In this document: positions 1 through 19,040 of the stretch, one piece after another
How the letters are laid out: each line of letters starts with the position of its first letter
How positions within the stretch are numbered: the stretch's first letter is position 1
From: PVC group bacterium
GTDB lineage: Bacteria > Omnitrophota > Gorgyraeia > B26-G9
Assembly: GCA_024231215.1 (NCBI GenBank)
Contig: JAAEQR010000142.1
Coordinates: 356,593 to 420,592, forward strand
Direction: 5' to 3'
Length of the DNA stretch: 64,000 nt
Notes under the pieces: model-generated
Databases searched by the model: none
Seen by the model: only the letters and a program-made list of their open reading frames with translations
What the model was told of the DNA's origin: nothing
Made by a program: the position numbers and the translations under genes

Positions 1-246
1 CTCACTAGCTGCCAGAGATATCCCCACATACAATGAGCCGCGGATATCATCAATTATTTCATTCATAATTTCTTCAGTAGCAACAAAGCTTTTTAGCGAT
101 GGAGCACGGGAACCCCGAATATATCCGGCATAGCCTAAATGCAAATAATTAACTTCAAATCCGGCCTCCTGCAAACAAGCCCCAATTTGCCGTAAATTTA
201 AACCAAAAAACCCCGGATAAAATGATATTAACGTAACTTTTTCCAT
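1..246 (-). CDS. B12-binding-domain protein, probable class B radical SAM paralog; N-terminal part only (runs off window start)
   Basis: Minus-strand ATG at 246 with GGAGA RBS 10 nt upstream. Translation MEKVTLISFYPGFFGLNLRQIGACLQEAGFEV... resembles the N-terminal cobalamin-binding domain of the neighbouring 570-aa rSAM. No stop before coordinate 1. Confidence 0.45.
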   Translation of the reverse strand, partial: MEKVTLISFYPGFFGLNLRQIGACLQEAGFEVNYLHLGYAGYIRGSRAPSLKSFVATEEIMNEIIDDIRGSLYVGISLAASE

Positions 247-253
247 GTTTTTT

Positions 254-1966
254 CTATTCTCCTGAACATTTTAACATTGATTTTAATTTATTTAGTTTAG
301 CTTGTCGGAGTTTCCTTTTTGTAAACCAGGAAACATCAGACAGTTCATTTTTAACTAAATCTGTTCTCAGCTTAAAAAATCTGACAACCTCATCAGCTTC
401 ATATCCCTTTAAGAAAAGAGGAAAAAAAGAATACATGGGAGAATAATTGTAAATCAAGCCAGCATTCTCAACTCTTAAAATAAATTCCTTGAGTTTTTCT
501 GAAGCGCGCAAAGCATCCATCGTCGGAGTTTTCCACATACAATAATCGTATTTATCTCCAAAATAACTAATATTATGTTTGATTTGTTCATCAAAAATTA
601 TAGACCCCGGCAACATATAAAAACAATAAATCTTATATAACTTCAAGGGGGAATTATTTATCCAATTAATAGTGTTATTGATGCTTTCTTCAGTTTCCCC
701 AGGAAAACCGACCATAAAACTGCCATAAGCAGTGATCTTTTGTTTATCCAAAAGTTCTAAACAGCGCATATTTCCGTCAACCGTAGTCATCTTATTCATT
801 AATTTAAGCATCCGATCATCGCCACTTTCTATACCAATATTGACAATTTTACATCCTGATTTTTTCAAAAGCACTACATTCTCTTCTGTGATTGAGCTTG
901 AACGAATACCGGCAAACCACTTAAAATCAAATTTCTCATCAATCATCATCTGGCAAATTTGCTCAATCCGTTTAGGATGGACAGCGAAATGATCATCGGT
1001 AAAAGCTAAATACTCTATCCCCGATTTTTTAATCTCTCTTAATTCATCACGCACACTTTCTAAAGAACGCTGCTCCAGCTTCATTGCTGCTTTTTGGAAA
1101 GTACAGAATTTACAACGAAAAGCGCATCCCCGGCTAGTTCGGACAAAAGCTATCCCTTTAGTAAGCTCGGTTATTCTCGACCAATCAGGAAAAATATTAT
1201 TAAAATCAACAAAATCTATCTTGCGCTTAGAATACTCAACTTTTTCTTTATTTCTAAAAACAAGATTATCTATGTCATTAACTGATTGTTTATTTTTCAA
1301 ACATCTGAATAATTTATCTAAGGTAGGCAATCCATTCTCTTCCAGAATACAATAGATATTCTCATCGATCAAAAGCTTTTCAAATTCTAAATGCAACTTA
1401 CCCTCATCGGTCAGCTTACTTAATAACACACTACTGCCAATAACAATAGGTACTTCCTTATTTAATTTTCTGACAATTATTATTAATTCTTCAATTTCTG
1501 AAGCATTCATAAAATAAGTCGCAGAAATCACAACTGCCAGAGGGTTATTCTCCAATTTATCTTTCAGCTCTCTTTCATATAAAGCAATATTATCCATACT
1601 AATCGGACAATAACCCTTTCTTAATAAAAACTCATAAATATACACAGCTGTTATTGTGGGAATCCCTGTTGGGTTGAAAAATCTCTCATCATATTGTGGC
1701 TGATAAACATATTTTTTATCATTTAAGACAAAATTAAGTAACTCAAAAATTCCAAAACGCCAATTATTAATCCATTCGGGAATTTCGATATTGTAAAGAA
1801 TTCTCGCTTTTATTTTTTTAACACTCTTCAGCTTTGAAATGTTTTTTAGAAAATATTTATTTTTAATATTGTATAAATTTAAAAAAAGACGCTTAATGAA
1901 AGATTTTTTTGTATCTATTGCCGGGATCCTATTCCTGCAAATTATGATTACCTCATCGTTCTTCAT
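254..1966 (-). CDS. B12-binding radical SAM protein (class B rSAM)
   Basis: CxxxCxxC motif (RGCAFRCKFCTF) with an N-terminal B12-binding-like domain; 570 aa. Lies inside the glycan/isoprenoid operon. Confidence 0.75.
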   Translation of the reverse strand: MKNDEVIIICRNRIPAIDTKKSFIKRLFLNLYNIKNKYFLKNISKLKSVKKIKARILYNIEIPEWINNWRFGIFELLNFVLNDKKYVYQPQYDERFFNPTGIPTITAVYIYEFLLRKGYCPISMDNIALYERELKDKLENNPLAVVISATYFMNASEIEELIIIVRKLNKEVPIVIGSSVLLSKLTDEGKLHLEFEKLLIDENIYCILEENGLPTLDKLFRCLKNKQSVNDIDNLVFRNKEKVEYSKRKIDFVDFNNIFPDWSRITELTKGIAFVRTSRGCAFRCKFCTFQKAAMKLEQRSLESVRDELREIKKSGIEYLAFTDDHFAVHPKRIEQICQMMIDEKFDFKWFAGIRSSSITEENVVLLKKSGCKIVNIGIESGDDRMLKLMNKMTTVDGNMRCLELLDKQKITAYGSFMVGFPGETEESINNTINWINNSPLKLYKIYCFYMLPGSIIFDEQIKHNISYFGDKYDYCMWKTPTMDALRASEKLKEFILRVENAGLIYNYSPMYSFFPLFLKGYEADEVVRFFKLRTDLVKNELSDVSWFTKRKLRQAKLNKLKSMLKCSGE

Positions 1967-4367
1967 TCTCTTCTCCTTCTAAAACATAGATCATTCCACT
2001 ATCGGCATCGACAAATATTTTTTGTCCGGTTTTAATTTTCTGGGTTGCTGTAAATAAATTGCCTACAGCCGGTATACCTATTTCCCGAGCAACAATCGCT
2101 CCGTGCGACAAATAATTCCCCATATCAGTTACAATCGCACCGGCAATTGCAAACAATGGCGTCCAACTTGGATTAGTTGAAACTGCCACTAAAATCTCAC
2201 CGGCCTTTAAAAGCCCCATATCTTTTTTGCTCTTTATCACTCTGGCAATGCCTGTATAAGTTCCACTGCTTAAGGCTAATCCCTGCATGCTTAATCCCGG
2301 GGACTGTTTATAAGCGATTTTTTCTTCCCTTCCACTTTTGTAAATCCTTATTTGTTCAAAAGACTCCTGCTGGGATAAACGTTCCCAATCTAGTTTTCTT
2401 TGATCAATACACTCCTGTTCTATCTGAAAATCTTTTGTGCAAACCTCATCTAATGTCTTAAAAAAAATATCATTTACAGTCTTAAAATTATTTTTTTGTG
2501 AAAGTGAAAGTGCCTGTTTGCGAATTTGAAACATTATCCTAACAATATTTTGCTTTATAGCCTCTCTCCAGATACTACACTTCTGAATATGACGAATTAA
2601 AACCTTAACTGGCAACCGAAAGAATAAAGGAATACTTTTCAATACAAGATCTTCCGTTTTAACTCGTCTCTGGATACGAGAATCTCTTTCTTTTTCAAAA
2701 TTGATCTCTGTTTTTTGTTCAATATAATGCTTAAGTGTTATCTCGACAAAACTATGATCCTCAGCCCAACGAGGATAAACTAACTCAAATTCTTTTAAGG
2801 ATTGATGCCCGAATTTTTCCAGAAAAACATCCCACTTTTTCGCAGAATCTGCTCCATACTTAGAAATCAAAGTGTGCAAAGAACCTTGGGAATTTTTTAT
2901 TTTCGCTAATAAATGGTCTTCTTTGCGTATAAAAGAAGCCAATTCCCATAAAGCTTCGCTTGCTGCTGTACTCTCGATTTTTCCCAGCCCGGTAACTAAT
3001 CCATCCATCATCACTGATACTTTTTCACCTGGCATATTTTCTTTAATCAATCCACCTATAATTATGGTGCCTAGTTCAAAGAAAATAGCTACTTTAACAT
3101 GTATTCTCATGTTTTGTTCTAAAAGTTCTCTTAAATCTTTTAACGCTTCTTTTTCTGTCAAAGTCATTATTTTACTCAATCTCCGAGAAAATCGCTTTTG
3201 AGCTACTTGCACAAAAAAAGGTAACGTTATAAAAGACACAAAATAAAAAAATAAAACTTTAAACAGTATAAAAGGCTTTTGTTTTTTAATATCCTGCACA
3301 TTATAAATTTGTTTAAATGCTGTTTGGTTACAATAAGCTCTGCCGTCAAAAAGAGAAAATAAATCATGCTCAAGGGGTATTAGACCTAGGCTTGTTACCG
3401 CATTTTTAAAACCTTGATTCGTCGCCTTATTCACAACTGACCAAGTGAACGGAGTTACAACGTCCGGGATAACATCTGCTACATTATCTCTAGTCCACAA
3501 AATATATTCATCATGTTTGATCTTACCTATCGTGATTGGCCTTACCTGCAAAACATACAATTTATTATTTTGATAAGCCCATTCGATATCTACTGGATAT
3601 TTAAACAACTTTTTTAGCTTTTGAGCTAATCGGGAAATTTCTTCTATCTGTTCATTATTTAAAACAGGATGATTAGATAATTTATCCGGCAGTTTGCTTA
3701 ATTCTTGCGGATTCTCAGGAGAACGCCAATATCTTTGCTTTCCGGTAATCACATGATTTATATTTCCACTATCTATATCAAGCTCATATTGATCGGATAC
3801 CGCTTCCCCGCTTACTAATGCCTCAGCCAGACCACAAACTGCATTAATAATGATAATTTTTTTTTCGGGCTGGTTAGGATCTTGGGTGAAGCATACTCCC
3901 GAACTAATTGGAGAAAGTACTTTTTGAATAAGCAGAGCCATTCTCTTGGGCTTATCCATCTTATTCGCCTGAATCCCCTGTTCATAGGATTTAACATGCG
4001 GAGAATCACCAGATTGCCAACAAGCCTGACATGCATTCTTAATTTCAGAAATCTCGTTTTTACAAATCAAAGACAGATACTGCCCCGCGTAAGAAGCCTG
4101 GGCGCTATCCTCTGATTCTCCTGATGACCGGACAATCAGCAAACAATTATCAAAAAAATATTTTCTTATATCCGAATAAAGCTGTTCTAAATTTTCTTTA
4201 TTATTGAAAGCAGTATAAGCTTGAAAATTTAAAATCACCCCTTCAGGCACAACAAACCCCGCTTTATAGCAAATCGCACAATTAAACGCCTTTGCCCCCA
4301 CAAAGGGCAATCCTTCAGCATAAGATTGATCGTATGTGTGAATAAATTTATTAAGCACCAAAAACAA
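1953..4367 (-). CDS. PEP-utilising / pyruvate-phosphate-dikinase-N family phosphotransferase (PEP-synthase / rifampicin-phosphotransferase-like architecture)
   Basis: C-terminal swivel phospho-His motif GNYLSHGAIVAREIGIPAVG and a PPDK-N ATP-grasp-like N-terminus. Ends with the mobile domain and has no TIM barrel. 14-nt overlap with the upstream rSAM. Confidence 0.7.
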   Translation of the reverse strand: MFLVLNKFIHTYDQSYAEGLPFVGAKAFNCAICYKAGFVVPEGVILNFQAYTAFNNKENLEQLYSDIRKYFFDNCLLIVRSSGESEDSAQASYAGQYLSLICKNEISEIKNACQACWQSGDSPHVKSYEQGIQANKMDKPKRMALLIQKVLSPISSGVCFTQDPNQPEKKIIIINAVCGLAEALVSGEAVSDQYELDIDSGNINHVITGKQRYWRSPENPQELSKLPDKLSNHPVLNNEQIEEISRLAQKLKKLFKYPVDIEWAYQNNKLYVLQVRPITIGKIKHDEYILWTRDNVADVIPDVVTPFTWSVVNKATNQGFKNAVTSLGLIPLEHDLFSLFDGRAYCNQTAFKQIYNVQDIKKQKPFILFKVLFFYFVSFITLPFFVQVAQKRFSRRLSKIMTLTEKEALKDLRELLEQNMRIHVKVAIFFELGTIIIGGLIKENMPGEKVSVMMDGLVTGLGKIESTAASEALWELASFIRKEDHLLAKIKNSQGSLHTLISKYGADSAKKWDVFLEKFGHQSLKEFELVYPRWAEDHSFVEITLKHYIEQKTEINFEKERDSRIQRRVKTEDLVLKSIPLFFRLPVKVLIRHIQKCSIWREAIKQNIVRIMFQIRKQALSLSQKNNFKTVNDIFFKTLDEVCTKDFQIEQECIDQRKLDWERLSQQESFEQIRIYKSGREEKIAYKQSPGLSMQGLALSSGTYTGIARVIKSKKDMGLLKAGEILVAVSTNPSWTPLFAIAGAIVTDMGNYLSHGAIVAREIGIPAVGNLFTATQKIKTGQKIFVDADSGMIYVLEGEENEER

Positions 4368-5397
4368 ACCTCTCTAATTTTCCATATTTTTTATCTTGGA
4401 TTTCTCCATTAATTGACATTTGGGCTTTGACAACTGTTTGTAAATATTGCCCCTTACCTAAGAGTGACTTTAACCATTTCGGATATGATCTTACCCTTAA
4501 TAGATAAAACAAACTCACTAATAATGTATTTAACCGGTTATTCTTTGTCATTCCTAAAGGAAAATCCTGAGACACAGACTTACAATCAGAAATTAAGCTG
4601 ATCTCATATTGTTTCTCAGCCGTAAAATTCAGTTTCATATTGTATTGTACTCCACTTCTTATACTATCATTCTCTTCTTCACTAACTTTCAAATCAATAG
4701 CATTAATTTGTTTACCGTTTTTATCCAACAAACATAAAATCCTAAGTTTTTCTGCCTTCCCTTTTAGTTCAATTTCAGAAAATATAAATGTAAAATCCGC
4801 AAAAAACACTCGGATCCAAACCCAGCCCTTAAACTCTCGAGCGATATTAAGGTTACCCCAATTATGGTCATGATACGCGATGCCCTCAATATTTATTTTT
4901 TTCTGATCAATTTCAATCTTCCCTGTTGCTTGCGCCCGGGGTAAAGGAACAATCCAATTAAACAACTCCTTATTTTTTTTATTTTCATAGACACATTCAC
5001 TTTTGTTACAAAAAAAAGGCAATTTACGTTTTAAAGTTAAATCAACTGCAACATCTTTCTCCTTAACAAAAATTTTATAATCCCCATTATTTTCTTCTAT
5101 TCTCCCACCCGGAAAAATAATTTTGCAGCAATTTTTATCTTGAACAACCTCTGCCCGCGAATAGCGTAAAACCCGCACTGTCGATTGAACCGGATCATTA
5201 TTGTTTTTATTAAGATTTTCATATATCCGAATAACTAAAAGGCATAAATTATTTCTCAGACTAAAGACTGGAGACTGCCATTCTATATATACATTTCTCC
5301 CATCTTCTAAATCAAAATCAAAATACCACCATTCGAAAAACTTACTCTGATCTTCTATATAAGAGCCATCATGCCGCAAAGATTTTACTTGATCCAT
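4351..5397 (-). CDS. hypothetical protein, possibly CrtC/AttH-like lipocalin hydratase family
   Basis: EWWYFDFDLEDGRNVYIEW N-terminal signature, reminiscent of hydroxyneurosporene-synthase-like proteins. Weak. Confidence 0.35.
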   Translation of the reverse strand: MDQVKSLRHDGSYIEDQSKFFEWWYFDFDLEDGRNVYIEWQSPVFSLRNNLCLLVIRIYENLNKNNNDPVQSTVRVLRYSRAEVVQDKNCCKIIFPGGRIEENNGDYKIFVKEKDVAVDLTLKRKLPFFCNKSECVYENKKNKELFNWIVPLPRAQATGKIEIDQKKINIEGIAYHDHNWGNLNIAREFKGWVWIRVFFADFTFIFSEIELKGKAEKLRILCLLDKNGKQINAIDLKVSEEENDSIRSGVQYNMKLNFTAEKQYEISLISDCKSVSQDFPLGMTKNNRLNTLLVSLFYLLRVRSYPKWLKSLLGKGQYLQTVVKAQMSINGEIQDKKYGKLERFVFGA

Positions 5398-5486
5398 AGA
5401 TTCCCTTTTTTAAAAATTACAACTTATTTTGGTTAACAATTAATCTCCCGCACCTGCTCCGATAATTATTAACAGCATCTTATTTA

Positions 5487-6488
5487 TCATATTCCCCCCA
5501 CAGTTTTCAAGCGGTTATTACACAACACCAGCAAGGGGAAAAATATTCTTTTAAAAGTAATTTTCGTAGACATGTCCTGCAATAACTTTTTAGTATAAAA
5601 ATTCCTCGTCATTCGGGAAAATTCCTTTCGGGCAAACTTTTCATTAATAAAATAATCTGAAACAATTTTCCCTGACAAAAGCGCTCCAGAAATCCCATTT
5701 AAATAAAATGGATCGATCATTCCGCTCATCGTTCCCGCTAAAACTATCCCCTCTTTTTCTATGTTTTTATTCTGGGGAATACATCCGGAAGAAAATGTCC
5801 AGGTTTCAAAGGAAATCTTTTCTTTTTCCCAAATAAAATCTTCAAATCTTTTTAAGCTATCGCTATTCATTGAATTACGTGAGAATAGAAGCCCAAACAT
5901 ACAATCATCATATGATGCAAGATAAGCAAACTCTCCGTTTGTATAATCACCAAAACAAGATACTGCGATATTTTTATTTGGAGTAATTCCTGAAGCCCTA
6001 AACCCATGAATCATCTTATATTTGATACCGCATATTTGATAAGCCGGAATCTCTAATCCGCAGGAGACTATAGCTTTTGATCTGTCTTTTTTAAGAATAC
6101 TTAAAGTTTCCTGATCAAGCGGCTGATCATAAATAAACTTCACTCCTAAGCCACAAGCAATTTTATAAAGATACTTTTCAATTGAATTTTCATGGCCGCC
6201 TTTTAAACACAAAAAAGCATTCGGAGGGTTAACCGCATGAGTTTTTTTGTCATAAAAATATATCGAATGGCTTACCGCCCGGCGAAAACACCGCGATATA
6301 TCAATGCCAATGTATTCCGAGGTACGGTCAATATCCATATATTGCAAATGAACAGACGGATGCCATTTAGGATCACCTCCTACTGTTTTTCTGCTTTCAA
6401 TGATTTCGGCTTCAAAACCTGCCTTGGCTAAATTTATACCGGCAACCAATCCGGAAATGCCTGCTCCATAAATTTTAATTTTTTCCAC
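5487..6488 (-). CDS. FAD-dependent oxidoreductase, geranylgeranyl-reductase-like
   Basis: N-terminal dinucleotide fold IYGAGISGLVAGINLAKAGFEAEIIE; 333 aa; sits among isoprenoid genes. Confidence 0.55.
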   Translation of the reverse strand: MEKIKIYGAGISGLVAGINLAKAGFEAEIIESRKTVGGDPKWHPSVHLQYMDIDRTSEYIGIDISRCFRRAVSHSIYFYDKKTHAVNPPNAFLCLKGGHENSIEKYLYKIACGLGVKFIYDQPLDQETLSILKKDRSKAIVSCGLEIPAYQICGIKYKMIHGFRASGITPNKNIAVSCFGDYTNGEFAYLASYDDCMFGLLFSRNSMNSDSLKRFEDFIWEKEKISFETWTFSSGCIPQNKNIEKEGIVLAGTMSGMIDPFYLNGISGALLSGKIVSDYFINEKFARKEFSRMTRNFYTKKLLQDMSTKITFKRIFFPLLVLCNNRLKTVGGI

Positions 6489-6548: not shown

Positions 6549-8027
6549 TTAACGCGTTACTTTTAATAAATTTAAAATTTCAGAAATTTTTTCTATTTTT
6601 AGTTCGCCAAACATAATCAGAAAAATAAAATAACAAAATAAACCCACAAAAAACGGGATCAGGAAAAACATATCTTTCAGGAAAAATATTATTCCTCCGG
6701 CCAAAACAGCGGCGAAAGCAGGCTTAAATATTAAACTGATCAAACTGGGACTGTTTTTAAACGACTCCCTGAATAAACGCGATTTCATTATGAGCACGAG
6801 GAAACCGCAAAAAACAGTTGTCGCACTTGCACCAATGTAGCCATATTGGGGAATCAAAATAAGATTTAAGATGAAATTTGCGCAGATTATAAGCAATGAG
6901 CCCAGCATTAAGATTTTAAGTTTTTCTTTCTGCACAATCAAAAACAGCCCCATTGGCCCGGCAAAATGATTCAACAAGAAAGACCAGATTAAAATCCTGA
7001 AAACCTGAGAACTAAGGGCAAATTCCTTTCCGAAAACAAATGGCACAATTTGCCCGGAAAGCAAAAATAGTGCTACCGTCAAAAAACTGGAAAAAATTAT
7101 CATTACTCTCATTGATTTAAGATATATTGGGTATGTATTTTCTAAAGAGCTCTTACTTTGGGATGATATAAATGGCAACATCGCACCCATAAAACAACCG
7201 GTTGCCACACCTAAAGCTTCATTCAGTTGAACCGCCACCCCATATATTCCTACATCCTGCATAGTTTTCATTTTAGAAAGCATGATAATATCCATTCTTC
7301 TTAATAAAATGCTTAAACCAATAAGAGCAAAAAGAGGAAAAGCCTGTTTTAAAAGACTATTTACTATCTTCCGATCAAATCTGGGTTTAAATTTGACAAA
7401 ATCCTTTTGAACAATGTAAAAAAGCACAAGTGAAGTAACTCCTGTGCCCAAGATCATCAGCAATATCATTCCGCCAAGATTTAAACCTAACCGAAGAAAT
7501 AAAATACCCAATATCGTAAAAAAAACAGAAAGAACTACCCCCACAACAGAAAAGATTTCCATTTTCTCAAATCCACTCAGAATTGCCGTTAACCGACTAA
7601 TTACTGAATTAAAAAAAATGGTAAACCCAGATAAAACTATTAAAAACATCATCTGTTTAGAGTAACCTAAATAGAAAGCTATAATTACCATCCCTATCCA
7701 AGCCAACAATGAAAAACCGATGGACAGAAAGATTGAATTACCGTAAAGCTCTGGAGCTTTTGTCTTGTCTTTGGCAATTTCCCGGGTGACGACAGTTGAT
7801 AAGCCAAAATCCGCAAAAATATTAGCAAAAGCAAGAAAAGCTAAAATAGTGGAAAACATTCCGAAGCCGTCCTGAGAAAGATATCGAGCCACGCAAGAGA
7901 TGAAAATTAGATTTATTACCCCGGTTAACACTTTATTCCCGAGTAAAGCAATCGTATTTTTAAGAACTCTAAATAGATTTGTTTTTTTGAATTCCATTTG
8001 TTTCCGCTTGATCCTCAACTGAAGCAA
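6549..8027 (-). CDS. MOP-superfamily polysaccharide/oligosaccharide flippase (Wzx-like)
   Basis: 492 aa, about 12-14 predicted TM helices with a typical polysaccharide-biosynthesis-protein layout. Confidence 0.7.
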   Translation of the reverse strand: MLQLRIKRKQMEFKKTNLFRVLKNTIALLGNKVLTGVINLIFISCVARYLSQDGFGMFSTILAFLAFANIFADFGLSTVVTREIAKDKTKAPELYGNSIFLSIGFSLLAWIGMVIIAFYLGYSKQMMFLIVLSGFTIFFNSVISRLTAILSGFEKMEIFSVVGVVLSVFFTILGILFLRLGLNLGGMILLMILGTGVTSLVLFYIVQKDFVKFKPRFDRKIVNSLLKQAFPLFALIGLSILLRRMDIIMLSKMKTMQDVGIYGVAVQLNEALGVATGCFMGAMLPFISSQSKSSLENTYPIYLKSMRVMIIFSSFLTVALFLLSGQIVPFVFGKEFALSSQVFRILIWSFLLNHFAGPMGLFLIVQKEKLKILMLGSLLIICANFILNLILIPQYGYIGASATTVFCGFLVLIMKSRLFRESFKNSPSLISLIFKPAFAAVLAGGIIFFLKDMFFLIPFFVGLFCYFIFLIMFGELKIEKISEILNLLKVTR

Positions 8028-8039
8028 CCTCCAGCCCGG

Positions 8040-12011: not shown

Positions 12012-12045
12012 TTTTAAACCTTTTGCCTCCCCAATTATTTAAAAA

Positions 12046-12981
12046 TTAACTCTTTTTATATATGCCAATAGCAAAGCCAATTCCCCAATAAACTAAACCC
12101 ATTGCAAACAATACCAATACCAAAGGCCTTTTTGTGATTACTTGTGGCTGATATCTTAAAAAAACGATACCTGTTCTGATAAATTTTACAACCGCTAAAA
12201 GTGGAACCAGCAATAGCCCGAGCAAAGAATTGCGCGCGATAAACGAACCTTCCAGGTTAACTACTTTCATCACTTTCGCGGTTATTTCCCCGATTTTCCG
12301 CTGATGAACGAAAAATTCTTTTAAATTAGACCGATGCAGATGCCTGACCTGAATATCTGGTGAAAAAATAATTTTCTCACCCTTCTGCCGTAAATTATAA
12401 TTAAAAACCAGATCTTCTTGAGGATAGTACTTTCCGTCAAAAAATCCAAACTTCTCAAAGATGTCTTTTTTATAGGAAATATTACACGTTGGTATATGGA
12501 CTGCCTCATGTCTGGGGGCTCCGGGAAGAAACTCACGAAATTCCGCAATATACCCAGCCCAGCCAATCAGATCACTTTCCTCATTAGCTATATCTACCGC
12601 ACCTCCTACAACATTATACCCTTGATCATAAGCAGTTTCTATGTTTTTCAGCCAATCATAACTGGCAATACAATCCGAATCAATAAATGCAATAATTTCC
12701 CCTTTAGCTTTCTCTATTCCCAAATTACGAGCAGTCCCCGGATCTGTTTTTTCTTCTAAGTGGGTCAATTTAGTATCAGGATATTCTTGTCTTACAATAT
12801 TCGGAGTATTATCATCAGAACTATCCACTAGAATTATTTCATATTCGTTTTCATAGGATTGGTTTTTGAGAGAATCAATACATTTTCCAATCGTCTGCTC
12901 AGAATTATATGAAGGAATAACTATTGAAATCACTTTTTTGACTCCTTTGGAGCAAAAATTAAATACTGATGATGTGCCCAT
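12046..12981 (-). CDS. family 2 glycosyltransferase
   Basis: ISIVIPSYNSE...YEIILVDSSDDNT. The 52-nt overlap with the upstream gene suggests a GTG start at 12933 (GTGA overlap) rather than 12981. Confidence 0.7.
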   Translation of the reverse strand: MGTSSVFNFCSKGVKKVISIVIPSYNSEQTIGKCIDSLKNQSYENEYEIILVDSSDDNTPNIVRQEYPDTKLTHLEEKTDPGTARNLGIEKAKGEIIAFIDSDCIASYDWLKNIETAYDQGYNVVGGAVDIANEESDLIGWAGYIAEFREFLPGAPRHEAVHIPTCNISYKKDIFEKFGFFDGKYYPQEDLVFNYNLRQKGEKIIFSPDIQVRHLHRSNLKEFFVHQRKIGEITAKVMKVVNLEGSFIARNSLLGLLLVPLLAVVKFIRTGIVFLRYQPQVITKRPLVLVLFAMGLVYWGIGFAIGIYKKS

Positions 12982-13763
12982 AGTTTTTGGATAAGATACG
13001 GCGAATTTTCAAGCCAAGAATGTTTCATTATTTCTATTTCCATCTGCGGGTTCTTTCCGCTAAAATAATCAAGAATACACAAATAATCATTCTGCCCTAA
13101 GCTATCTTTCTTAGGTTTAATACCTATCTTAGCTAAAAGTTCCTCTTTTTTCATAGCAATATCAGGCCACCAAGGAGTATCTAAATACCCCTGTTTTTGC
13201 AAATTCCAGCCTAAGTTCTTTAAAAAACTTTTTATCTTATTCGCATCTATATGCTCTGGATATGGAATACCCTCTTGCTTAGCATCTTTCATCCTCATTT
13301 TACAAAATACATTTGATTTATTAGGAATACAAATAAAAATGACTTTTCGGCTTACCCGGCTCAACTCCCTTAAAAAATTATCAAGCTTCGAGATATACCA
13401 CAAAGCCGCAAAATTCCAGCTTAGATCAAAAGCCTTATCATCAAACGGTAAAACTTTATTATCAATAGCACAATGTTCAATATGTACAGCTAAAGCTACT
13501 TCTTGCCAAACATCCTTGATCTTATGAATCCTTTCCTCATCAAAATCAGTAATAGTCACTGGAATTTTCTTAGCTACCCACCATAGGCTATTAATGCCAG
13601 AAACTCCCGTCATCCCAAAGCTAGGTGTTTCGAGAACATTCTCAATCCCATATTTATTTTTCATATCTTCAAAATAACCATGCAAAATAAATCGTTCATA
13701 AGTCGATCCCAAACCCTCATGATGGTTTTTAAAATAATCACCCCAAGTAGTGCTAATTGCCAT
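12930..13763 (-). CDS. hypothetical protein, possibly class I SAM-methyltransferase-like
   Basis: Gly-rich loop LETPSFGMTGVSG followed by an acidic ITDFDEE strand, like MTase motifs I/II. Weak. Confidence 0.35.
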   Translation of the reverse strand: MAISTTWGDYFKNHHEGLGSTYERFILHGYFEDMKNKYGIENVLETPSFGMTGVSGINSLWWVAKKIPVTITDFDEERIHKIKDVWQEVALAVHIEHCAIDNKVLPFDDKAFDLSWNFAALWYISKLDNFLRELSRVSRKVIFICIPNKSNVFCKMRMKDAKQEGIPYPEHIDANKIKSFLKNLGWNLQKQGYLDTPWWPDIAMKKEELLAKIGIKPKKDSLGQNDYLCILDYFSGKNPQMEIEIMKHSWLENSPYLIQKLWAHHQYLIFAPKESKK

Positions 13764-13775: not shown

Positions 13776-15317
13776 CTAGTTTTTTATTCGATATACCGGA
13801 CATAATGGCGAATCAATAATTTTCTCAAACTCAGCTCCATCCCCCATAAGTTTTTTAGCGAGACTGTTCGCCTGAGAAAGCGTTCTATTTAATAGTTGTT
13901 TTTTTTGAATACGCTCCGCCCCCCATAACTTCTTAGCTAGCGGTGAGGGCCAATAAAGACTTTCTGAAAAATAAACTGTCCTTCCTTTGAAAAGCTCCTC
14001 AGCCGAATCAACTAAATTAAAAAAATCTCTAACATTTGATGACCAGTTTAGCCAAAAACTTTCCTCTAACCTATTAATTGTCTGCTTATTTGGATACCGA
14101 GTGTCTCGGATAAGCATATTCGGCCGGCCGCTAAGAATAAAAATGTTTTCTTTGTCATTTACTGAATACCAGTAGCAAACACCGAAATTATATTTTGAGA
14201 ACATTATCGCTCTAGGCTCATATATTTCATGTAACTCTGCTACAACTCTCTGTATTTCTACAGCATTCCTTTTTTCCTCAGATACTAACATATTCAATGA
14301 CACCACTAAATAAAAAAACAACACAACTGCAACAAGTGCCTTCCCCTGATTCTTTTTCTTAAACAGTTTAATAATTCCTTCAGACGCAAAAAAACTAACT
14401 GGTATAAATGTTATTATGAGATGGTCTCCGGAAAGCAATCCTAAGTTAAAAATATATAATAAAAACGGCAAGAACCAGGCCCCAAAGAAAATTAATACTT
14501 TTCTGTTTTCTTTTAACAAAACAACCACTCCCCCTAAAGCAAACAGGGAAATTATGTTAAAAGAAACGCCATACACTTTAGCCAACTCAAAAAAAACATA
14601 TCCGCTTATCTCAAAAAAATTAACTGTTTTCACAAAAAGTTCCGGAACAAAAACAGCCGCTGCAAAAACCTCCACAACCCTTTCCGGTTTACACAAGAAT
14701 AAAACTGCTAAAATCAAAAAAGGCAATAAAAACTTAAATAGCCCTATTTTCCCAGCTTTCTTTTGCACCACGAGACATCCCAAAGGAAACAATGCCAATA
14801 ATGAGGTAGGCGTTATAGAACAAGCGACAACTTCAAATAAACCGGCCGCCAAGAAATGTCCCTTAAGGATTAAAATTGCTGCCAACATTATCACAGCCAA
14901 CTGCGGGATATATACCTCCCCATGCAAAGAAAACAACATAAATGTTCCAGAAAATAATAAGATAAATGCGGCAATCAGACTTTGCAAACGATTATTCGTA
15001 AAATTAAGCGTCAGCATATACATACAAACAACACAAATAGCCGAAGCCAACACGGAAAGATATCCGAGAGTAAGCAAGGAACTAGCCCCCCCCATTCTCA
15101 TAAAAAAATGCATAATTGCCCCAATAACATAATAACCAAAATGGACAACCGTAGCATCAAAGCTCGACAAACTGCGAGCATATGTATAGGTATCACCATT
15201 TGCCGGCGGATGAATCATAAAAAATGGCAAAACAACAAGTACCCCTAGGAATAGAAGGGTTTCTATTTTATGTTTTTCCCAATTCTTTTTTAAAAATTTA
15301 GAGATTTTATTTTTCAT
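13776..15317 (-). CDS. GT-C-type membrane glycosyltransferase-like protein (ArnT/PMT/DUF2723-like)
   Basis: About 9-11 N-terminal TM helices with an early periplasmic-loop motif HPPANGDTYTY. Soluble C-terminal domain; 513 aa. Confidence 0.4.
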   Translation of the reverse strand: MKNKISKFLKKNWEKHKIETLLFLGVLVVLPFFMIHPPANGDTYTYARSLSSFDATVVHFGYYVIGAIMHFFMRMGGASSLLTLGYLSVLASAICVVCMYMLTLNFTNNRLQSLIAAFILLFSGTFMLFSLHGEVYIPQLAVIMLAAILILKGHFLAAGLFEVVACSITPTSLLALFPLGCLVVQKKAGKIGLFKFLLPFLILAVLFLCKPERVVEVFAAAVFVPELFVKTVNFFEISGYVFFELAKVYGVSFNIISLFALGGVVVLLKENRKVLIFFGAWFLPFLLYIFNLGLLSGDHLIITFIPVSFFASEGIIKLFKKKNQGKALVAVVLFFYLVVSLNMLVSEEKRNAVEIQRVVAELHEIYEPRAIMFSKYNFGVCYWYSVNDKENIFILSGRPNMLIRDTRYPNKQTINRLEESFWLNWSSNVRDFFNLVDSAEELFKGRTVYFSESLYWPSPLAKKLWGAERIQKKQLLNRTLSQANSLAKKLMGDGAEFEKIIDSPLCPVYRIKN

Positions 15318-16293
15318 CAGTAATCGCCTCTAAATATGCAGTAAATTTTTTTTCTGTGTCGGAAAACTCGAAATTATTTCCAGAATCAGGCTGCGTCGGC
15401 AAATAATACCAATCTTTTGACAACAACTGCATCCTAACACTCCACTTTTCATTTTTTATAAATTTAAAAATCAAATTAGCGACAGAAAAACATATATCTG
15501 GGATCTTCAACATTCGGGGATATTTCTTCTTATAAAAATTAAAATAAATCAAATCTGCTAATCTGCTTAAAATGATAGATTGCTTATCGGCAATAACAAA
15601 CACGTTACTTTTTTTAATATCAGCTGATAAAAAAAAGCTGAAAACTTCTGCTAGTTTTTCCACATCAAGAAGATGGATTTTAGTATCGTGTGAAGGAAGA
15701 ACCAACATCCTCCTTCGTATCAGCTTTATTAAAATAGAAGAGAATCCGTTATCATTCTTTCCGTAAGTTATTGTCGGTCGAATAATTACCGCATCTAACC
15801 CCTTTTTTACAAACTCCTGCACCGTCTGCTCAGCTTTAGCCTTAGAATTATGATAATCATTATCCGGAGCTAATACCGTATCTATATCCGCCGGAACCTT
15901 TTGGGGGATAGTTCCCAACACTCCGACCGAACTACAAAAAATAAACCGCTTAATCCGATGTTCTAATGAAGCTTCAAGTAAAATTTGCGTACCTTTAACA
16001 TTGACTTGCTCATAGAGATGCTGCAGTCCTGCTCCGGTCCCGCGTAATGCAGCACAGTGAATAACATAAGCTATGGGGAATTTTTCAAATATATCTAAAA
16101 CTGTTTTCTTATTATGGAATTCTCCTTTTACAAGAATAACTTCTTTTGTTTTTAATTGCTCTGTATTTTTATAATTAACATCCTCCCGAACAATAGCAAC
16201 AATATTATATATATTTTGTTCTATTAACTTTTCCGCAATATGAGAACCTATAAATCCAGTTGCTCCAGTTATAAACACACATTCTTTATTCAT
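15307..16293 (-). CDS. NAD-dependent epimerase/dehydratase (SDR extended family)
   Basis: VFITGATGFIGSHIAEKL Rossmann motif; 328 aa. Confidence 0.75.
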   Translation of the reverse strand: MNKECVFITGATGFIGSHIAEKLIEQNIYNIVAIVREDVNYKNTEQLKTKEVILVKGEFHNKKTVLDIFEKFPIAYVIHCAALRGTGAGLQHLYEQVNVKGTQILLEASLEHRIKRFIFCSSVGVLGTIPQKVPADIDTVLAPDNDYHNSKAKAEQTVQEFVKKGLDAVIIRPTITYGKNDNGFSSILIKLIRRRMLVLPSHDTKIHLLDVEKLAEVFSFFLSADIKKSNVFVIADKQSIILSRLADLIYFNFYKKKYPRMLKIPDICFSVANLIFKFIKNEKWSVRMQLLSKDWYYLPTQPDSGNNFEFSDTEKKFTAYLEAITDEK

Positions 16294-16294: not shown

Positions 16295-17383
16295 TCATCT
16301 TAACCTCAAAAAATTCCATCCTACCCGGCATAATGTCTTTGCATGATGCAAAATATTCGTATAGCTGGCATTAGCCAATGGACAATAGCATTCTTTGTTC
16401 TTAATACACTTTCGTGCTTTATTCGCCTCTTCAGAAAACCAGACCTTTTTAAAATCGTAATCCGCTTCTCTCAGGTTACCAATACATTTTGCTGTTATAC
16501 AACACATCCAGACATCACCCTCAGGCGCTACCTGCGCGGAAGCAAAACCAGCAAAACACGGGATAACCTGACGATGCTCCCGTAAAATCTGTTTCACCAT
16601 GCGATAATACTCAATGCGAAACACTCTAGTAATTTTCCCTGCTTTACTAAAATCACCGGTTTTCAGTTTGTCGCTAAGGAAATCTACAGCTTTTGCATAT
16701 TCCTGATAATCAGGAGAAATTCCGGCATTCATGGTTCCAAGCTCCTGACGCTCTTCGGCAATTTCCGTAACATAGGAATCCGGCTTCAATGCACTTAAAT
16801 GCTCGTAAATTTCCGGAATACGCGAAACATTAAATCTCGAAATTACAGTGTGAATACCCACGGAAAGATTCGGTAGTTTAAGCGCTTTCAAAGCAAAAAA
16901 TGTCTTTTTAGCCTTTTCATAATTTCCCGGAACTCCGCGAATAACATCATGCCTTTCTCCGATATCGTCGATAGAAACATTAATCACTATCTGAGACTTC
17001 TTGCAATACTCAGCAATCGTTTTAACCAAATCCGGGATTTTATCTGCCAGCAAACCGTTTGTAGGGATATTAATAATTGCCGGGCCACAATCCTGATATA
17101 AAGAACATACAATCTGTTCGATATCACTGCGAAGAAACGGTTCTCCCCCGCTTATTGTTACCCATACAACACTTTTGCCAAATTTTTTAATTATTTTTTT
17201 CCACTCTACCAGGGATAATTCCTCAGACTTTTTTTTGTATATATTACAGGTTTTACAACTTGAGTTACACTGATAACTGAGACTAAGGGTAAGATTCATC
17301 GGCAGTTTACGAGGATAACTAAACAAGCGAAATAAATAGTATCCAGGAATTTTTGAAATTACTTTCAGCATATTTAATCCCAC
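16295..17383 (-). CDS. radical SAM protein with C-terminal SPASM/twitch-like Cys cluster
   Basis: CNSSCKTC (CxxxCxxC) at the N-terminus. C-terminal cysteines VIPCFAGF...VWMCCITAKCIGN...CIKNKECYCPLA. Confidence 0.7.
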   Translation of the reverse strand: MGLNMLKVISKIPGYYLFRLFSYPRKLPMNLTLSLSYQCNSSCKTCNIYKKKSEELSLVEWKKIIKKFGKSVVWVTISGGEPFLRSDIEQIVCSLYQDCGPAIINIPTNGLLADKIPDLVKTIAEYCKKSQIVINVSIDDIGERHDVIRGVPGNYEKAKKTFFALKALKLPNLSVGIHTVISRFNVSRIPEIYEHLSALKPDSYVTEIAEERQELGTMNAGISPDYQEYAKAVDFLSDKLKTGDFSKAGKITRVFRIEYYRMVKQILREHRQVIPCFAGFASAQVAPEGDVWMCCITAKCIGNLREADYDFKKVWFSEEANKARKCIKNKECYCPLANASYTNILHHAKTLCRVGWNFLRLR

Positions 17384-18264
17384 TTCTTAGTTGAAGTGGA
17401 AATCTCCCATATAAAGGGATTGTTCTTACGAACATAGAAATCATAATACCCTAGAGCTCGGCTATAAAGCTCTAAGCATATAGCTCCTATAGCCCACATA
17501 TTCTTTTTCATATCCCACCAATATTTTTTCTTTAAGATAAGCTCAATCATGCTTCTTGCCGGATTCTGAGTGCTTACTTTGTAATTTCGTGTCTTTTTCA
17601 AATACTCATGTCCGGCAGTTATCCGTCTTCTTTGTCTAATAAAATCACGTATCGTCTCTGGGCCTTTATTATAAACAATCGCGTCCTCAACATACGCAAG
17701 GTTATATCCTTCTTTTCTTACAATAGATTCAATACTTGCTTCGTCCACTGCCGTATCATTAGATATGGATCTGACAAAATTTCTAAACGCCACCAATTCT
17801 CCCAACTTTGGAGTTATAAGTGCCACCTGATGGTGTTTCAACCAGAGGAAATGAACTGTAAAACCTATAAAGGTATCCTGAGAATTAACTGGAATCGAAC
17901 GAGCCCCTGTCATTCCGATAGAAGAATCTTTGAACGGAGCAATCAGTTTATTGAAGGTTCCTTTCGCAGGAACCGTATCCGCACTTTCTAGAATAAATAT
18001 GTCTCCTGAGGCATCAGCAAGAAAAAGATTTATTGCCGATGCTTTCCCTTGCCGTGTTGGCTGGGAAATAAGTCTAATACTCTTATCTTTAGCAATAAAA
18101 GAACGGACAATATCTTCAGTACTGTCTGTACATCCTGATGCAACAACAATAATTTCCTTCAGAACAGCATCGCACAATTCCTGTGCTAATGCTGTCTCTA
18201 GCAAGCGACCAATGTTGCCTTCCTCATTATAAGCCATTATTCCTAAAGATACATTCGTCATCAT
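17374..18264 (-). CDS. family 2 glycosyltransferase-like
   Basis: SLGIMAYNEEGNIGRLLE N-terminus; GT-A fold features; 296 aa. Confidence 0.55.
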   Translation of the reverse strand: MMTNVSLGIMAYNEEGNIGRLLETALAQELCDAVLKEIIVVASGCTDSTEDIVRSFIAKDKSIRLISQPTRQGKASAINLFLADASGDIFILESADTVPAKGTFNKLIAPFKDSSIGMTGARSIPVNSQDTFIGFTVHFLWLKHHQVALITPKLGELVAFRNFVRSISNDTAVDEASIESIVRKEGYNLAYVEDAIVYNKGPETIRDFIRQRRRITAGHEYLKKTRNYKVSTQNPARSMIELILKKKYWWDMKKNMWAIGAICLELYSRALGYYDFYVRKNNPFIWEISTSTKKWD

Positions 18265-19040
18265 TTGTCTTCATTTTGGGAACCACTAGCTACAAATTCA
18301 TCATAATTTTTAAAAAGATACGACAAATGCTTAATTATTTTCTTAAATGGCGCACGAAAGCGTAACGTTATCCAAAATGCTTCTTTTACAACATTACGGG
18401 ATATTTTAGAATCACCATGTTTTCTCTCTTTAAAAAGAATCGGAATTTCGTGAACACTGAAGTTGTTTTTGAATGTCAAATGTATCATCTCTATCTGAAA
18501 AGCATAACCATCTGACTTTATGCTATCAAGATCTATCTTTTCCAACACTTTCCGATTATAACATCTATATCCAGCAGTAAAATCCCATATTGGTTTGACC
18601 ATTACATACGAAACATACATATTTGCAAATTTGCTAAGCAACAGCCTTCGGAATTTCCATCCCTCGACCCTTACCCCATTTACATACCTGCTTCCAATAA
18701 TTAAATCATACTTCTTTGCTGCCTCAAGAAAATCCTGTAGATACTTGGGATCATGAGAAAAATCCGCATCTATTTCAAAAATCAGATCAGCTTCCTTCGC
18801 CAGAGCTACCTTAAACCCTGTTACATACGCTGTACCCAGTCCCATTTTTTCGGGACGATGTAATACATTTATTCGGGGATCCTGTTTGGCCAGATTATCA
18901 GCAATATCTCCGGTACCATCCGGTGAATTATCATCAACTATGATTAGATTAAATTCAGGCTGAAGCGCAAAAATCTGCGTAACAAACTCTTCAAGATTTT
19001 TAGCTTCATTATATGTTGGAATAACCGCAAACACTTTCAT
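18261..19040 (-). CDS. polyprenyl-phosphate hexosyltransferase (Dpm1-like GT2; dolichyl/polyprenyl-phosphate mannose or glucose synthase family)
   Basis: VIPTYNEAKNLEEF...IIVDDNSPDGTGDIA...HRPEKMGLGTAY. First gene of the long minus-strand operon. Confidence 0.75.
   Translation of the reverse strand: MKVFAVIPTYNEAKNLEEFVTQIFALQPEFNLIIVDDNSPDGTGDIADNLAKQDPRINVLHRPEKMGLGTAYVTGFKVALAKEADLIFEIDADFSHDPKYLQDFLEAAKKYDLIIGSRYVNGVRVEGWKFRRLLLSKFANMYVSYVMVKPIWDFTAGYRCYNRKVLEKIDLDSIKSDGYAFQIEMIHLTFKNNFSVHEIPILFKERKHGDSKISRNVVKEAFWITLRFRAPFKKIIKHLSYLFKNYDEFVASGSQNEDK

Follow-up and report, generated by a model that had tools for sequence, protein, structure and literature searches.

What does an anaerobic bacterium make with an operon in which isoprenoid enzymes, radical S-adenosylmethionine (SAM) enzymes and a dikinase lie among the genes of a glycan assembly line? 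The operon occupies positions 1-19040 of a 64,000-nucleotide stretch (contig JAAEQR010000142.1 of assembly GCA_024231215.1), the whole of which we call the window and whose coordinates we use throughout. The source is a metagenome-assembled genome (MAG) of an anaerobic, Omnitrophota-like member of the PVC group. We tentatively favor the reading that the operon makes a cell-envelope glycoconjugate with a dedicated, tailored geranylgeranyl-type isoprenoid; the product would be a bacterial isoprenoid glycolipid or lipoglycan, and neither a routine polysaccharide nor an archaeal diether. The isoprenoid looks like a stoichiometric substrate and not merely a recycled carrier, because most of the related clusters contain a CrtE-like synthase, one is followed by a 1-deoxy-D-xylulose 5-phosphate (DXP) synthase, up to three isoprenoid flavoproteins and an AttH/CrtC-like protein occur in them, and a GT1 glycosyltransferase is near-constant. 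GT1 enzymes (UDPGT/EryCIII-like) are of the type that glycosylates lipophilic alcohols.

Each protein of the operon belongs to, or folds like, a known superfamily, and the glycan half resembles the Gtr, Arn, decaprenyl-phosphoryl-arabinose (DPA) and Agl systems. What we have not found described is the conserved coupling of this glycan half to a divergent UbiA/SPASM pair, an Rph-type dikinase, an AttH/CrtC-like protein, isoprenoid flavoproteins and class-B radical SAM enzymes.

Layout and conservation of the operon

The operon runs on the minus strand from 19040 to 1 and comprises 16 complete open reading frames (ORFs) and the first 82 codons of a seventeenth, which runs off position 1, according to the ORF listing and translation. 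All 17 genes are co-directional, the intergenic distances are -52 to +89 nt, and ~99% of 1-19040 is coding. The earlier note on this DNA, made from the sequence alone, had described a tight co-directional run of about 19 genes; the run is there, with 17 genes, which is also what the itemized list in that note adds up to. Its family calls were reproduced throughout, the GT-C and geranylgeranyl-reductase (GGR)-like ones with the help of structure models. We scanned the 17 operon genes against Pfam and NCBIfam, and roughly 30 other ORFs of the window were scanned as well. In the order of transcription, with the upstream region first, the features are:

19041-19427, no strand: upstream intergenic region, presumed promoter region (ORF map)
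18261-19040, minus strand: DPM1-type polyprenyl-phosphate glycosyl synthase, 259 amino acids (aa), first gene of the operon (PF00535, 114 bits)
17374-18264, minus strand: GT2 glycosyltransferase, 296 aa (PF00535, 78 bits)
16295-17383, minus strand: radical SAM/SPASM enzyme, 362 aa (PF04055, 58.6 bits; PF13186, 29.8 bits; both above gathering cutoff)
15307-16293, minus strand: NAD-dependent epimerase/dehydratase-family enzyme of the short-chain dehydrogenase/reductase (SDR) type, 328 aa (PF01370, 121 bits)
13776-15317, minus strand: GT-C-fold membrane glycosyltransferase, 513 aa (AlphaFold2 model, Foldseek)
12930-13763, minus strand: SAM-dependent methyltransferase, 277 aa (Methyltransf_11, 31 bits)
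12046-12981, minus strand: GT2 glycosyltransferase with a hydrophobic C-terminal tail, 311 aa (PF00535, 113 bits)
11127-12011, minus strand: short-chain trans-isoprenyl diphosphate synthase homolog, 294 aa (PF00348, 131 bits; CrtE-geranylgeranyl diphosphate (GGPP) synthase, 264 bits; farnesyl diphosphate synthase (FPPS), 260 bits)
10107-11096, minus strand: GT2 glycosyltransferase, EpsD-like, 329 aa (PF00535, 99 bits; NF041875, 170 bits)
9200-10117, minus strand: GT2 glycosyltransferase, 305 aa (PF00535, PF13641)
8040-9197, minus strand: divergent UbiA-family membrane transferase, 385 aa (identical to P0001, NCBI name UbiA family prenyltransferase)
6549-8027, minus strand: Wzx-type MOP-family flippase, 492 aa (Polysacc_synt, 94 bits; Polysacc_synt_3, 69 bits)
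5487-6488, minus strand: flavin adenine dinucleotide (FAD) flavoprotein with a GGR-like fold, 333 aa (predicted structure)
4351-5397, minus strand: AttH/CrtC-like lipocalin-fold protein, candidate isoprenoid hydratase, 348 aa (PF07143)
1953-4367, minus strand: ATP-dependent dikinase of the rifampin-phosphotransferase (Rph/PigC) type, 804 aa (PPDK_N, 151 bits; PEP-utilizers, 74 bits)
254-1966, minus strand: radical SAM enzyme, class-B-like, 570 aa (PF04055, 98 bits)
1-246, minus strand: second class-B (B12-binding) radical SAM enzyme, first 82 codons, running off the window (translation)

Exact matching of the window proteins to a contig index gave no hit, and the genomic context therefore comes from relatives. 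A genome-collection scan with the UbiA alignment yielded 69 loci, onto which the window proteins were mapped by tblastn and hidden Markov models, supplemented by contig look-ups. Pointing in one direction and with their order largely kept, the same genes occur in Omnitrophota (L001/L074 and L073), in about 30 Calditrichota MAGs and in a Caldisericaceae MAG (L017). The same gene set is also found in many Anaerolineae MAGs, in Syntrophorhabdus (L028) and Desulfatiglans (L077) MAGs, and in unassigned metagenome contigs. The carriers span at least five phyla of uncultured anaerobes (Omnitrophota, Calditrichota, Caldisericota, Anaerolineae and Desulfobacterota MAGs), and among the loci found no cultured organism has the full cluster. 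In the Omnitrophota relative L073, the cluster sits in the same MurJ-UvrC neighborhood as in the window. Since the gene set is conserved across phyla, the arrangement is not a matter of chance, and gene neighborhood argues that the locus is one functional unit, a real conserved operon. This supports the idea, put forward in the earlier note, of a single unit in which enzymes of isoprenoid-lipid synthesis are coupled to a glycan line of polyprenyl-phosphate-sugar synthase, GT-C and flippase. Its suspicion that the system had not been described also agrees with our literature searches, which found no description of the cluster.

The near-constant members of the cluster are the DPM1-type GT2 (in many cases fused to the GT2 that follows it), two more GT2s, the SDR, the methyltransferase, a GT-C, the UbiA-type enzyme, the Rph-like dikinase (often directly beside UbiA), the AttH/CrtC-like protein and a GT1/UDPGT-type glycosyltransferase. 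The GT-C is either of the window's type or of the PMT_2 type, and L073 has both. The variable members are the SPASM radical SAM enzyme, the GGR-like flavoprotein, a CrtD-like amine oxidase, a lycopene-cyclase-like flavoprotein, the class-B radical SAM enzymes, Wzx, the GGPP synthase, an O-methyltransferase, a GH26 protein, a polysaccharide deacetylase and, found in Calditrichota, a set of secreted paralogs with tails for type-IX secretion. In L001, a relative with 77% identity, the operon goes on with the rest of the second B12 radical SAM enzyme, a GT1/UDPGT-type glycosyltransferase and a PMT_2 GT-C. Because the operon of this closest relative continues into a GT1 and a second GT-C, the 3' end of the operon studied here is probably cut by the window edge.

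The secreted paralogs occur two or three to a cluster in Calditrichota and Caldisericota, are ~460-740 aa long and lack a Pfam core domain. They lie at 8311-9849, 11035-12924 and 12963-15173 of L007, with equivalents in L017 and L048, and in any one locus a type-IX secretion sorting domain forms the end of at most two of them. Possible roles are as targets of glycosylation or as enzymes that process the glycan.

Could the locus instead be an ordinary exopolysaccharide or O-antigen-type locus with unrelated isoprenoid neighbors? Five GT2s, an SDR, a methyltransferase and Wzx are typical of such loci. However, in at least five phyla the glycan genes are accompanied by UbiA, the Rph-like dikinase and AttH/CrtC, and the order is conserved. 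In addition, no initiating phosphoglycosyltransferase, Wzy polymerase or chain-length regulator is among the Pfam and NCBIfam matches of the 17 genes. Therefore the locus is not a routine O-antigen or capsule locus, an outcome that the earlier note had named as one that would overturn it; Wzx alone of that machinery is present. We regard the ordinary-locus explanation as extremely improbable.

The UbiA-type enzyme and its partners

The UbiA-type gene ends at 9197 on its 5' side, and a longer ORF that reaches 9344 is an artefact of in-frame start codons upstream. The UbiA motifs NxxxDxxxD and DxxxD are kept, N64/D68/D72 and D191/D195 being invariant in a six-member alignment. The window protein itself has no Pfam match at E<=0.01, PF01040 included; PF01040 is carried by the relatives P0002-P0006 and by all but one of the fusion proteins scanned. 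Of the UbiA-family structures in the PDB sequence set, a profile of the family matches chlorophyll synthase alone (E 2e-6 over 200 residues). Among NCBIfam models, the subfamily is nearest to uncharacterized archaeal 'prenyltransferase' models and chlorophyll synthases. A HMMER scan of 1.84 billion representative proteins returned 3,009 matches at E<=1e-3 and 190 at E<=1e-30, so that the subfamily has ~3,000 representatives counted at 50% identity. Because the scan returned only 3,009 matches, the subfamily is, as judged by its profile, a distinct divergent clade and not generic UbiA.

Chlorophyll synthases are therefore the nearest characterized UbiA relatives of this enzyme. Chlorophyll synthases O-prenylate a carboxylate before GGR acts, and the ChlG/BchG and ChlP/BchP pairs resemble the present system in combining O-prenylation by GGPP with subsequent saturation by a GGR-fold enzyme. 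Unlike them, the subfamily scores only ~20-30 bits against cutoffs of >200, its hosts are non-phototrophic anaerobes, and it sits in a glycan context without tetrapyrrole genes.

Members of the subfamily are fused to radical SAM/SPASM, to TPR and GT41, to CBM_4_9, to P450 and to TPR (proteins P0230, P0229, P0276, P0256, P0240). These fusion proteins are 'Rosetta stone' links of UbiA to radical-SAM chemistry and to glycans. Distant members in cultured Lachnospiraceae adjoin GT2s, a UDP-glucose dehydrogenase and NUDIX. These neighbors, together with the glycan-linked fusions, indicate that the subfamily is tied to glycan metabolism. A NUDIX hydrolase gene also follows the cluster in L077 (20587-21014), and the NUDIX genes beside UbiA in Lachnospiraceae include that of L070. 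A tblastn search of plasmids with the UbiA protein found only two distant cyanobacterial multidomain matches, on a Nostoc sp. C052 plasmid (L075, 8134-11790) and an Oscillatoria acuminata plasmid (L076, 8089-11415). In both, a distant UbiA-like domain lies inside a protein of ~1,100-1,200 aa; the two are annotated as a TPR protein and a phytanoyl-CoA dioxygenase family protein, in loci rich in glycosyltransferases and sulfotransferases. The Anaerolineae locus L022 has a second, shorter UbiA paralog (2682-3563) in the sugar half, where other loci have the methyltransferase.

The SPASM enzyme of the window can be aligned end to end both with the radical SAM/SPASM portion of P0230, a UbiA fusion (E 3e-15), and with the enzyme encoded beside UbiA in Faecalicatena (E 8e-16). 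Because the two proteins are fused in P0230, their genes adjoin in distant taxa, and the window SPASM enzyme can be aligned to both, UbiA and the SPASM radical SAM enzyme appear to be functionally coupled. In most loci that carry it, the SPASM gene adjoins the SDR gene.

The strongest of the rival readings, itself unlikely, is a three-component periplasmic glycosylation of the DPPRS/PPPRS kind. The published system, reported to be widespread, adds pentofuranoses in the periplasm by means of a polyprenyl phosphoribose synthase of the UbiA family, a flippase, a GT-C and an auxiliary epimerase (Kelly et al. 2024, PMC11127046). Applied to the present operon, the UbiA enzyme would move an activated phospho-sugar, such as phosphoribosyl pyrophosphate (PRPP), onto polyprenyl phosphate. 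The SPASM and SDR enzymes would then epimerize the lipid-linked sugar by oxidation and reduction, as an anaerobic counterpart of DprE1/DprE2. Wzx would flip the donor, and the GT-C enzyme or enzymes would add the sugar to an envelope glycan or protein. The Rph-like kinase, the GGR-like reductase and the hydratase would serve only to produce or recycle a special carrier, a short saturated isoprenyl phosphate.

All four component types are present here in one locus (UbiA, a MOP-superfamily flippase in Wzx, the GT-C fold and an SDR epimerase-family enzyme), as in the DPA and PPPRS-MATE-GT136 systems (PMC11127046), and a DPM1/GtrB-type polyprenyl-phosphate sugar synthase is shared as well. The SPASM and SDR genes are neighbors in most loci with both, and UbiA and SPASM are fused in P0230. 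The glycan-rich surroundings of the Lachnospiraceae and cyanobacterial plasmid members and the CBM and GT41 fusions point the same way. However, the family profile misses the solved DPPRS 8j8j (cited in PMC11127046) at E<=10, yet matches chlorophyll synthase. No DPPRS model is among the NCBIfam matches, and nothing detectable sets the UbiA enzyme nearer to DPPRS than to the rest of the UbiA family. The operon and the related loci examined showed no phosphatase of the HAD or PAP2 type that could remove the 5-phosphate. In addition, a recycled carrier leaves the GGPP synthase, the linked DXP synthase, the three isoprenoid flavoproteins, the class-B radical SAM enzymes and GT1 unexplained. These proteins, the GGPP synthase being that of the relatives, are together with the Rph-type dikinase and AttH/CrtC extra to the three-component systems. 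We know of no described three-component system with such partners.

The dikinase, which adjoins UbiA in several phyla, has as its best solved relatives the Listeria rifampin phosphotransferases 5hv1/5fbs (E 3e-49). Its swivel histidine is supplied by 'LSHGAIVARE', its orthologs carry Rph_4th, and the Pfam scan found no phosphoenolpyruvate (PEP)/pyruvate-binding barrel in it. The earlier note had called it rifampicin-phosphotransferase/PEP-synthase-like; the Rph architecture is borne out, and the 'PEP-type' label falls with the missing PEP/pyruvate-binding domain. Like Rph and the prodigiosin ligases PigC and RedH, the enzyme combines ATP-grasp, central substrate-binding and swiveling histidine domains. 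Unlike them, it reaches only 232-298 bits against cutoffs of 883-1350 (231.8 bits against 999 for the Rph equivalog NF041857), and it is embedded in a biosynthetic operon beside UbiA.

The complete class-B-like radical SAM enzyme (254-1966) aligns over nearly its full length with the class-B PhpK family TIGR04479 (288 bits, cutoff 600), followed by HpnJ and the ladderane B12 radical SAM enzyme. It has the CxxxCxxC motif ('CAFRCKFC'), and PF02310 was not detected in the Pfam scan. An ortholog with 53% identity is found in an Anaerolineae locus. The enzyme is probably a methylase or a C-C-forming tailoring enzyme, going by its family. The product of 1-246 is 89% identical to the N-terminus of a 488-aa L001/L074 protein that carries PF02310 and PF04055. 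Lipid tailoring by these class-B enzymes is a plausible but speculative role. Like the lipid radical SAM enzymes GrsA/B, HpnP/R, HpnJ, HpnH and Cds (PMC13459092), class-B-like and SPASM/auxiliary-cluster enzymes occur here in a lipid/glycolipid locus, and the weak best matches include HpnJ, HpnR and HpnH. Unlike those enzymes, the ones found here approach no equivalog cutoff, and the complete class-B-like one is matched best by the PhpK P-methyltransferase family and not by a lipid enzyme.

Two further ideas that these matches suggest were rejected. A phosphonate or phosphinate pathway, to which a PhpK-like radical SAM and a 'PEP' enzyme would belong, lacks a PEP mutase in the operon and the related loci examined, and the dikinase has no PEP-binding domain. 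For mycofactocin-like chemistry, the MftF-like and MftC-like matches score far below cutoffs, and the annotation of the operon includes neither a precursor-peptide gene nor an MftB-like one.

Isoprenoid supply and tailoring

If the isoprenoid is a substrate of the pathway, where does it come from? Canonical CrtE-like GGPP synthases adjoin UbiA in Calditrichota, Caldisericota and Syntrophorhabdus, and polyprenyl-synthase genes have the same position in the Desulfatiglans locus and in L078. In L078, the gene of the DXP synthase, the entry enzyme of the methylerythritol phosphate (MEP) pathway, lies directly after the cluster (19216-21011). We tested the synthases for intactness of the first (DDxxxxD...RRG) and second (DDxxD) motifs. 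The Calditrichota, Caldisericota and Syntrophorhabdus orthologs aligned are almost all canonical and CrtE-like (HAASLIMDDLPYMDD...RRGKP). In the window homolog, the first Asp-rich motif is degenerate, IHEDLPATGNRDYRYGK as against the canonical DDLPYMDDSQLRRGKP of these orthologs; it reads EDLPATG...RYG where DDLPxMD...RRG is expected, and the second motif, FDDLLD, is intact. The Pfam score of this homolog lies far over the threshold. In the L001 ortholog (7191-8069), both motifs are destroyed (AGLAATG.., FNDLRD). Because canonical catalytic residues are lost, the Omnitrophota copies are probably not ordinary synthases; they may be pseudo-enzymes or have a changed function.

Up to three isoprenoid-type flavoproteins (GGR-like, CrtD/amine-oxidase-like and lycopene-cyclase-like) lie beside UbiA, along with AttH/CrtC. 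The flavoprotein of the window has, in its structure model, the PHBH fold of the GGR type. Against TIGR02032 it scores 30.5 bits (cutoff 158.8), its C-terminal 80 residues alone being aligned, and PDB sequence searches with it found the Rossmann motif only. It belongs to a small GGR-fold family of ~170 clusters in a word-index search. An oxygenase role is unlikely because the organism is anaerobic, as its NrdD indicates. The AttH/CrtC-like protein matches PF07143, the CrtC N-terminal domain, with 35.3 bits (gathering cutoff 22.5), and its family profile matches AttH 2ich (E 7e-4). It scores 20 bits against a cutoff of 400 for the CrtC hydratase equivalog NF045922. Its orthologs are present in most of the related loci. 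The earlier note had made its UbiA-, reductase- and CrtC-like calls depend on family scores: the CrtC-like protein is above the PF07143 gathering cutoff, the UbiA protein lacks a Pfam match and keeps invariant motifs, and the GGR-like protein falls below the TIGR02032 cutoff and has the fold.

The gaps at 5398-5486 (89 nt) and 8028-8039 (12 nt) of the window are exactly the positions at which L001 has two extra genes, for a CrtD-like amine oxidase and a Methyltransf_3 O-methyltransferase. This points to a recent loss or gain of genes within the operon.

This set of proteins recalls carotenoid tailoring by CrtC, CrtD, CrtF and the UbiA-type LyeJ/CrtEb, since a CrtC-family protein, a CrtE-like synthase and a UbiA-family enzyme occur together, and relatives add the CrtD-like amine oxidase and O-methyltransferase (L001) and the lycopene-cyclase-like flavoprotein (elsewhere). 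In contrast to carotenoid loci, no phytoene synthase or desaturase was found, and the CrtC equivalog score is far from its cutoff.

The same proteins bring in another reading, in which the product is a terpenoid glycoside, diffusible or inserted in the membrane. The UbiA-type protein would be an intramembrane terpene synthase or cyclase acting on GGPP, and the scaffold would be reduced, hydrated, methylated, phosphorylated and then glycosylated by GT1 and GT2. Candidate products are a membrane modulator resembling hopanoids or sterols and a phosphoglycolipid like moenomycin. Intramembrane terpene synthases of the UbiA type are known (PMC9835599). The tailoring set (CrtE-like synthase, lycopene-cyclase-like flavoprotein, CrtD-like and CrtC-like proteins, GT1 and DXP synthase) is like that of terpenoid clusters, and the best or near-best weak NCBIfam matches include the hopanoid side-chain enzymes HpnA, HpnJ, HpnH, HpnB/I and HpnE. 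However, all Hpn matches are far below cutoffs, and no squalene-hopene cyclase, phytoene synthase or squalene synthase is found in the operon or the other window ORFs scanned. In addition, the DPM1-type synthase, Wzx and one or two GT-Cs point to lipid-phosphate-linked glycans at the periplasmic face, which would be unusual for small-molecule glycosides. A terpenoid glycoside is therefore an improbable product.

The glycan line and a proposed pathway

The operon encodes five GT2 enzymes, one of them of the DPM1 type. The best solved relative of the DPM1-type enzyme is the P. furiosus dolichol-phosphate-mannose synthase 5mlz (E 2.7e-32), followed by ArnC, and its top NCBIfam matches are AglJ and PpgS, whose equivalog cutoffs it does not reach. 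The GT2 at 17374-18264 is fused to the DPM1-type enzyme in Calditrichota and Caldisericota (568-583 aa, and probably also in a protein of 565 aa), which implies consecutive steps. These fusions of ~570 aa lie at 4382-6088 of L048, 3073-4788 of L007 and 3930-5681 of L017, with probably another on a JGI contig. This GT2 and the one at 12046-12981, which is 42-58% identical across phyla, are the most conserved proteins of the cluster. The GT2 at 9200-10117, by contrast with these, is confined to the window and L001 among the loci compared in the presence/absence table. The methyltransferase is 38-48% identical in Calditrichota, Caldisericota and Syntrophorhabdus and 25-31% in Anaerolineae, and the best NCBIfam match of the SDR is HpnA (103 bits, below cutoff).

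The protein of 13776-15317 has ~12 transmembrane helices and a C-terminal soluble domain, and gave no Pfam, NCBIfam or useful PDB sequence match. Its BLASTP comparison with the PMT_2-type proteins of related loci is non-significant, and hhalign relates it to these GT-Cs with 83% probability. Its AlphaFold2 model has a pLDDT of 86, and the top 36 Foldseek matches in the PDB are all GT-C enzymes (STT3/PglB, ArnT, ALG9, AftA, Emb, Pmt). The loop-1 motif 'NGDTYTYA' is nearly invariant and contains D42, the acidic residue of the first periplasmic loop. The GT-C-like call of the earlier note is thus upheld by structure where sequence models are silent.

The glycan line also bears on the interpretation offered in that note, namely that the operon serves archaeal-type ether lipids and/or saturated dolichol-like phosphate carriers for Agl-like glycosylation. 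Agl N-glycosylation uses GGR-family saturation of dolichol. The haloarchaeal pathway (AglJ/AglD, AglG/I/E, AglP, AglR, AglS) has counterparts here in a dolichol-phosphate-mannose-synthase/AglJ-like enzyme, GT2s with AglG-like matches, a methyltransferase, a Wzx-like flippase, a GT-C and a GGR-fold reductase; UbiA may be added to this parallel on the ether-lipid side. Unlike the Agl system, the present one is bacterial, and its UbiA, dikinase and radical SAM enzymes have no Agl counterpart. No oligosaccharyltransferase of the STT3/AglB type is found by sequence; the GT-C matches STT3 at the fold level alone, alongside ArnT, ALG9 and Emb. The synthase is of the trans short-chain type (CrtE/FPPS-like), with a degenerate first motif here, and is not a dolichol-making cis-prenyltransferase. 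For this reason the dolichol analogy is weak; the DPM1-like enzyme, GT-C, flippase and GGR fold on which it was built are present. The 'core of archaeal-type ether-lipid synthesis' is not borne out: neither a glycerol-1-phosphate dehydrogenase nor a geranylgeranylglyceryl phosphate synthase turned up in the scan of the 17 genes of the operon and ~30 further ORFs of the window, and the UbiA enzyme is not of the digeranylgeranylglyceryl phosphate synthase (DGGGPS) type, as DGGGPS models are matched by one of the six family members, weakly. The archaeal-type explanation is very improbable.

We return to the preferred reading, an isoprenoid glycolipid or lipoglycan of the cell envelope. Each enzyme is placed by family or fold, from which we infer substrates and the order of steps. 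A C20 prenyl diphosphate would be supplied by the canonical CrtE-like synthase in most of the related loci. In the window it would probably come from a housekeeping enzyme, because the local homolog has lost key catalytic residues. The UbiA enzyme would form the bond between the lipid and a polar group, probably a C-O bond whose oxygen belongs to a carboxylate, a hydroxyl or a phosphate, and the SPASM radical SAM enzyme may act together with it in this step. The architecture of the Rph-type dikinase suggests that it uses ATP and the swiveling histidine to phosphorylate a hydroxyl of a hydrophobic intermediate. The product might be a lipid phosphate for DPM1-type glycosylation, or a nucleophile or leaving group for the UbiA step. 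By fold and family, the GGR-like flavoprotein would saturate double bonds and the AttH/CrtC-like protein would hydrate one, and the two class-B radical SAM enzymes might methylate or cyclize unactivated carbons. The DPM1-type synthase would make a lipid-phosphate sugar, the other four GT2s would extend the glycan, and the SDR and methyltransferase would tailor it. Wzx would flip the product to the periplasmic face, where a GT-C would transfer or extend the glycan; a second GT-C probably lies just beyond the window.

Several points weigh against this reading. The synthase homolog is degenerate in the window and certainly non-canonical in L001, and the Anaerolineae loci and L073 have no prenyl synthase; therefore not every cluster encodes its own prenyl supply. 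The AttH/CrtC-like, class-B radical SAM and GGR-like proteins are all far below the equivalog cutoffs of named families. The UbiA subfamily is repeatedly tied to glycan functions through its GT2 neighbors and its CBM and GT41 fusions, and for the UbiA, flippase, GT-C and SDR genes the DPPRS-like scheme fits about as well. Beyond family and fold, each step is a matter of interpretation, and so is the acceptor for UbiA.

A more specific form of the preferred reading is possible, if doubtful. Uncultured anaerobes of several phyla, living in sediment and groundwater, may use it to make an unrecognized class of membrane or envelope lipid that is geranylgeranyl-derived, saturated, hydrated and radical-SAM-modified, and that is joined by the trio of UbiA, SPASM and Rph-type enzymes to a methylated oligosaccharide head group. 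Such a lipid would be the functional equivalent, in bacteria, of archaeal glycolipids or of extended hopanoids. Orphan isoprenoid biomarkers of anoxic sediments might stem from it, and the chemistry of UbiA, SPASM and dikinase would be a new route to a lipid-glycan linkage.

If the preferred reading is right, the operon defines how a bacterium would synthesize an isoprenoid glycolipid, by a route that can be tested. Its carriers (Omnitrophota, Calditrichota, Anaerolineae, Caldisericota, Desulfobacterota) abound in anoxic sediments, but hardly any lipid chemistry has been assigned to these lineages. The locus gives a working context to four uncharacterized groups, namely the UbiA subfamily, its partner SPASM family, Rph-type dikinases of biosynthesis and not resistance, and the GGR-fold flavoprotein family. 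For geochemistry, it offers candidate genes for orphan isoprenoid lipids; for glycobiology, it would extend the theme of UbiA, flippase and GT-C beyond pentofuranose addition.

The window has ~36% G+C with a negative GC skew throughout. The 5' boundary of the operon lies at 19040, followed by a 387-nt gap before a divergent plus-strand gene (ORF map). Several sigma-70-like matches lie on the minus strand at 19090-19200, in a scan that as a whole is not above shuffled expectation; promoter and terminator scans alike are at shuffled expectation and uninformative on operon structure. The divergent gene (19428-20195, plus strand) encodes a retropepsin-like (gag-asp_proteas) aspartyl protease. A gene 2.3 kb upstream of the operon and on the opposite strand to it (21342-23519, plus strand) encodes a large, unassigned radical SAM enzyme, a 725-aa protein with Fer4_12 and Radical_SAM domains and a weak YydG-like match only. 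The other upstream genes scanned are mostly housekeeping (among them UvrC, MurJ, DNA polymerase III delta, LptE, BamD-like, AsmA-like, AccA). Farther away lie a tRNA-Phe (GAA) gene (57474-57549, plus strand), a radical SAM enzyme of the AmmeMemoRadiSam system (57622-58485, minus strand) and the anaerobic ribonucleotide reductase NrdD (59679-62102, minus strand), which fits an anaerobic lifestyle.

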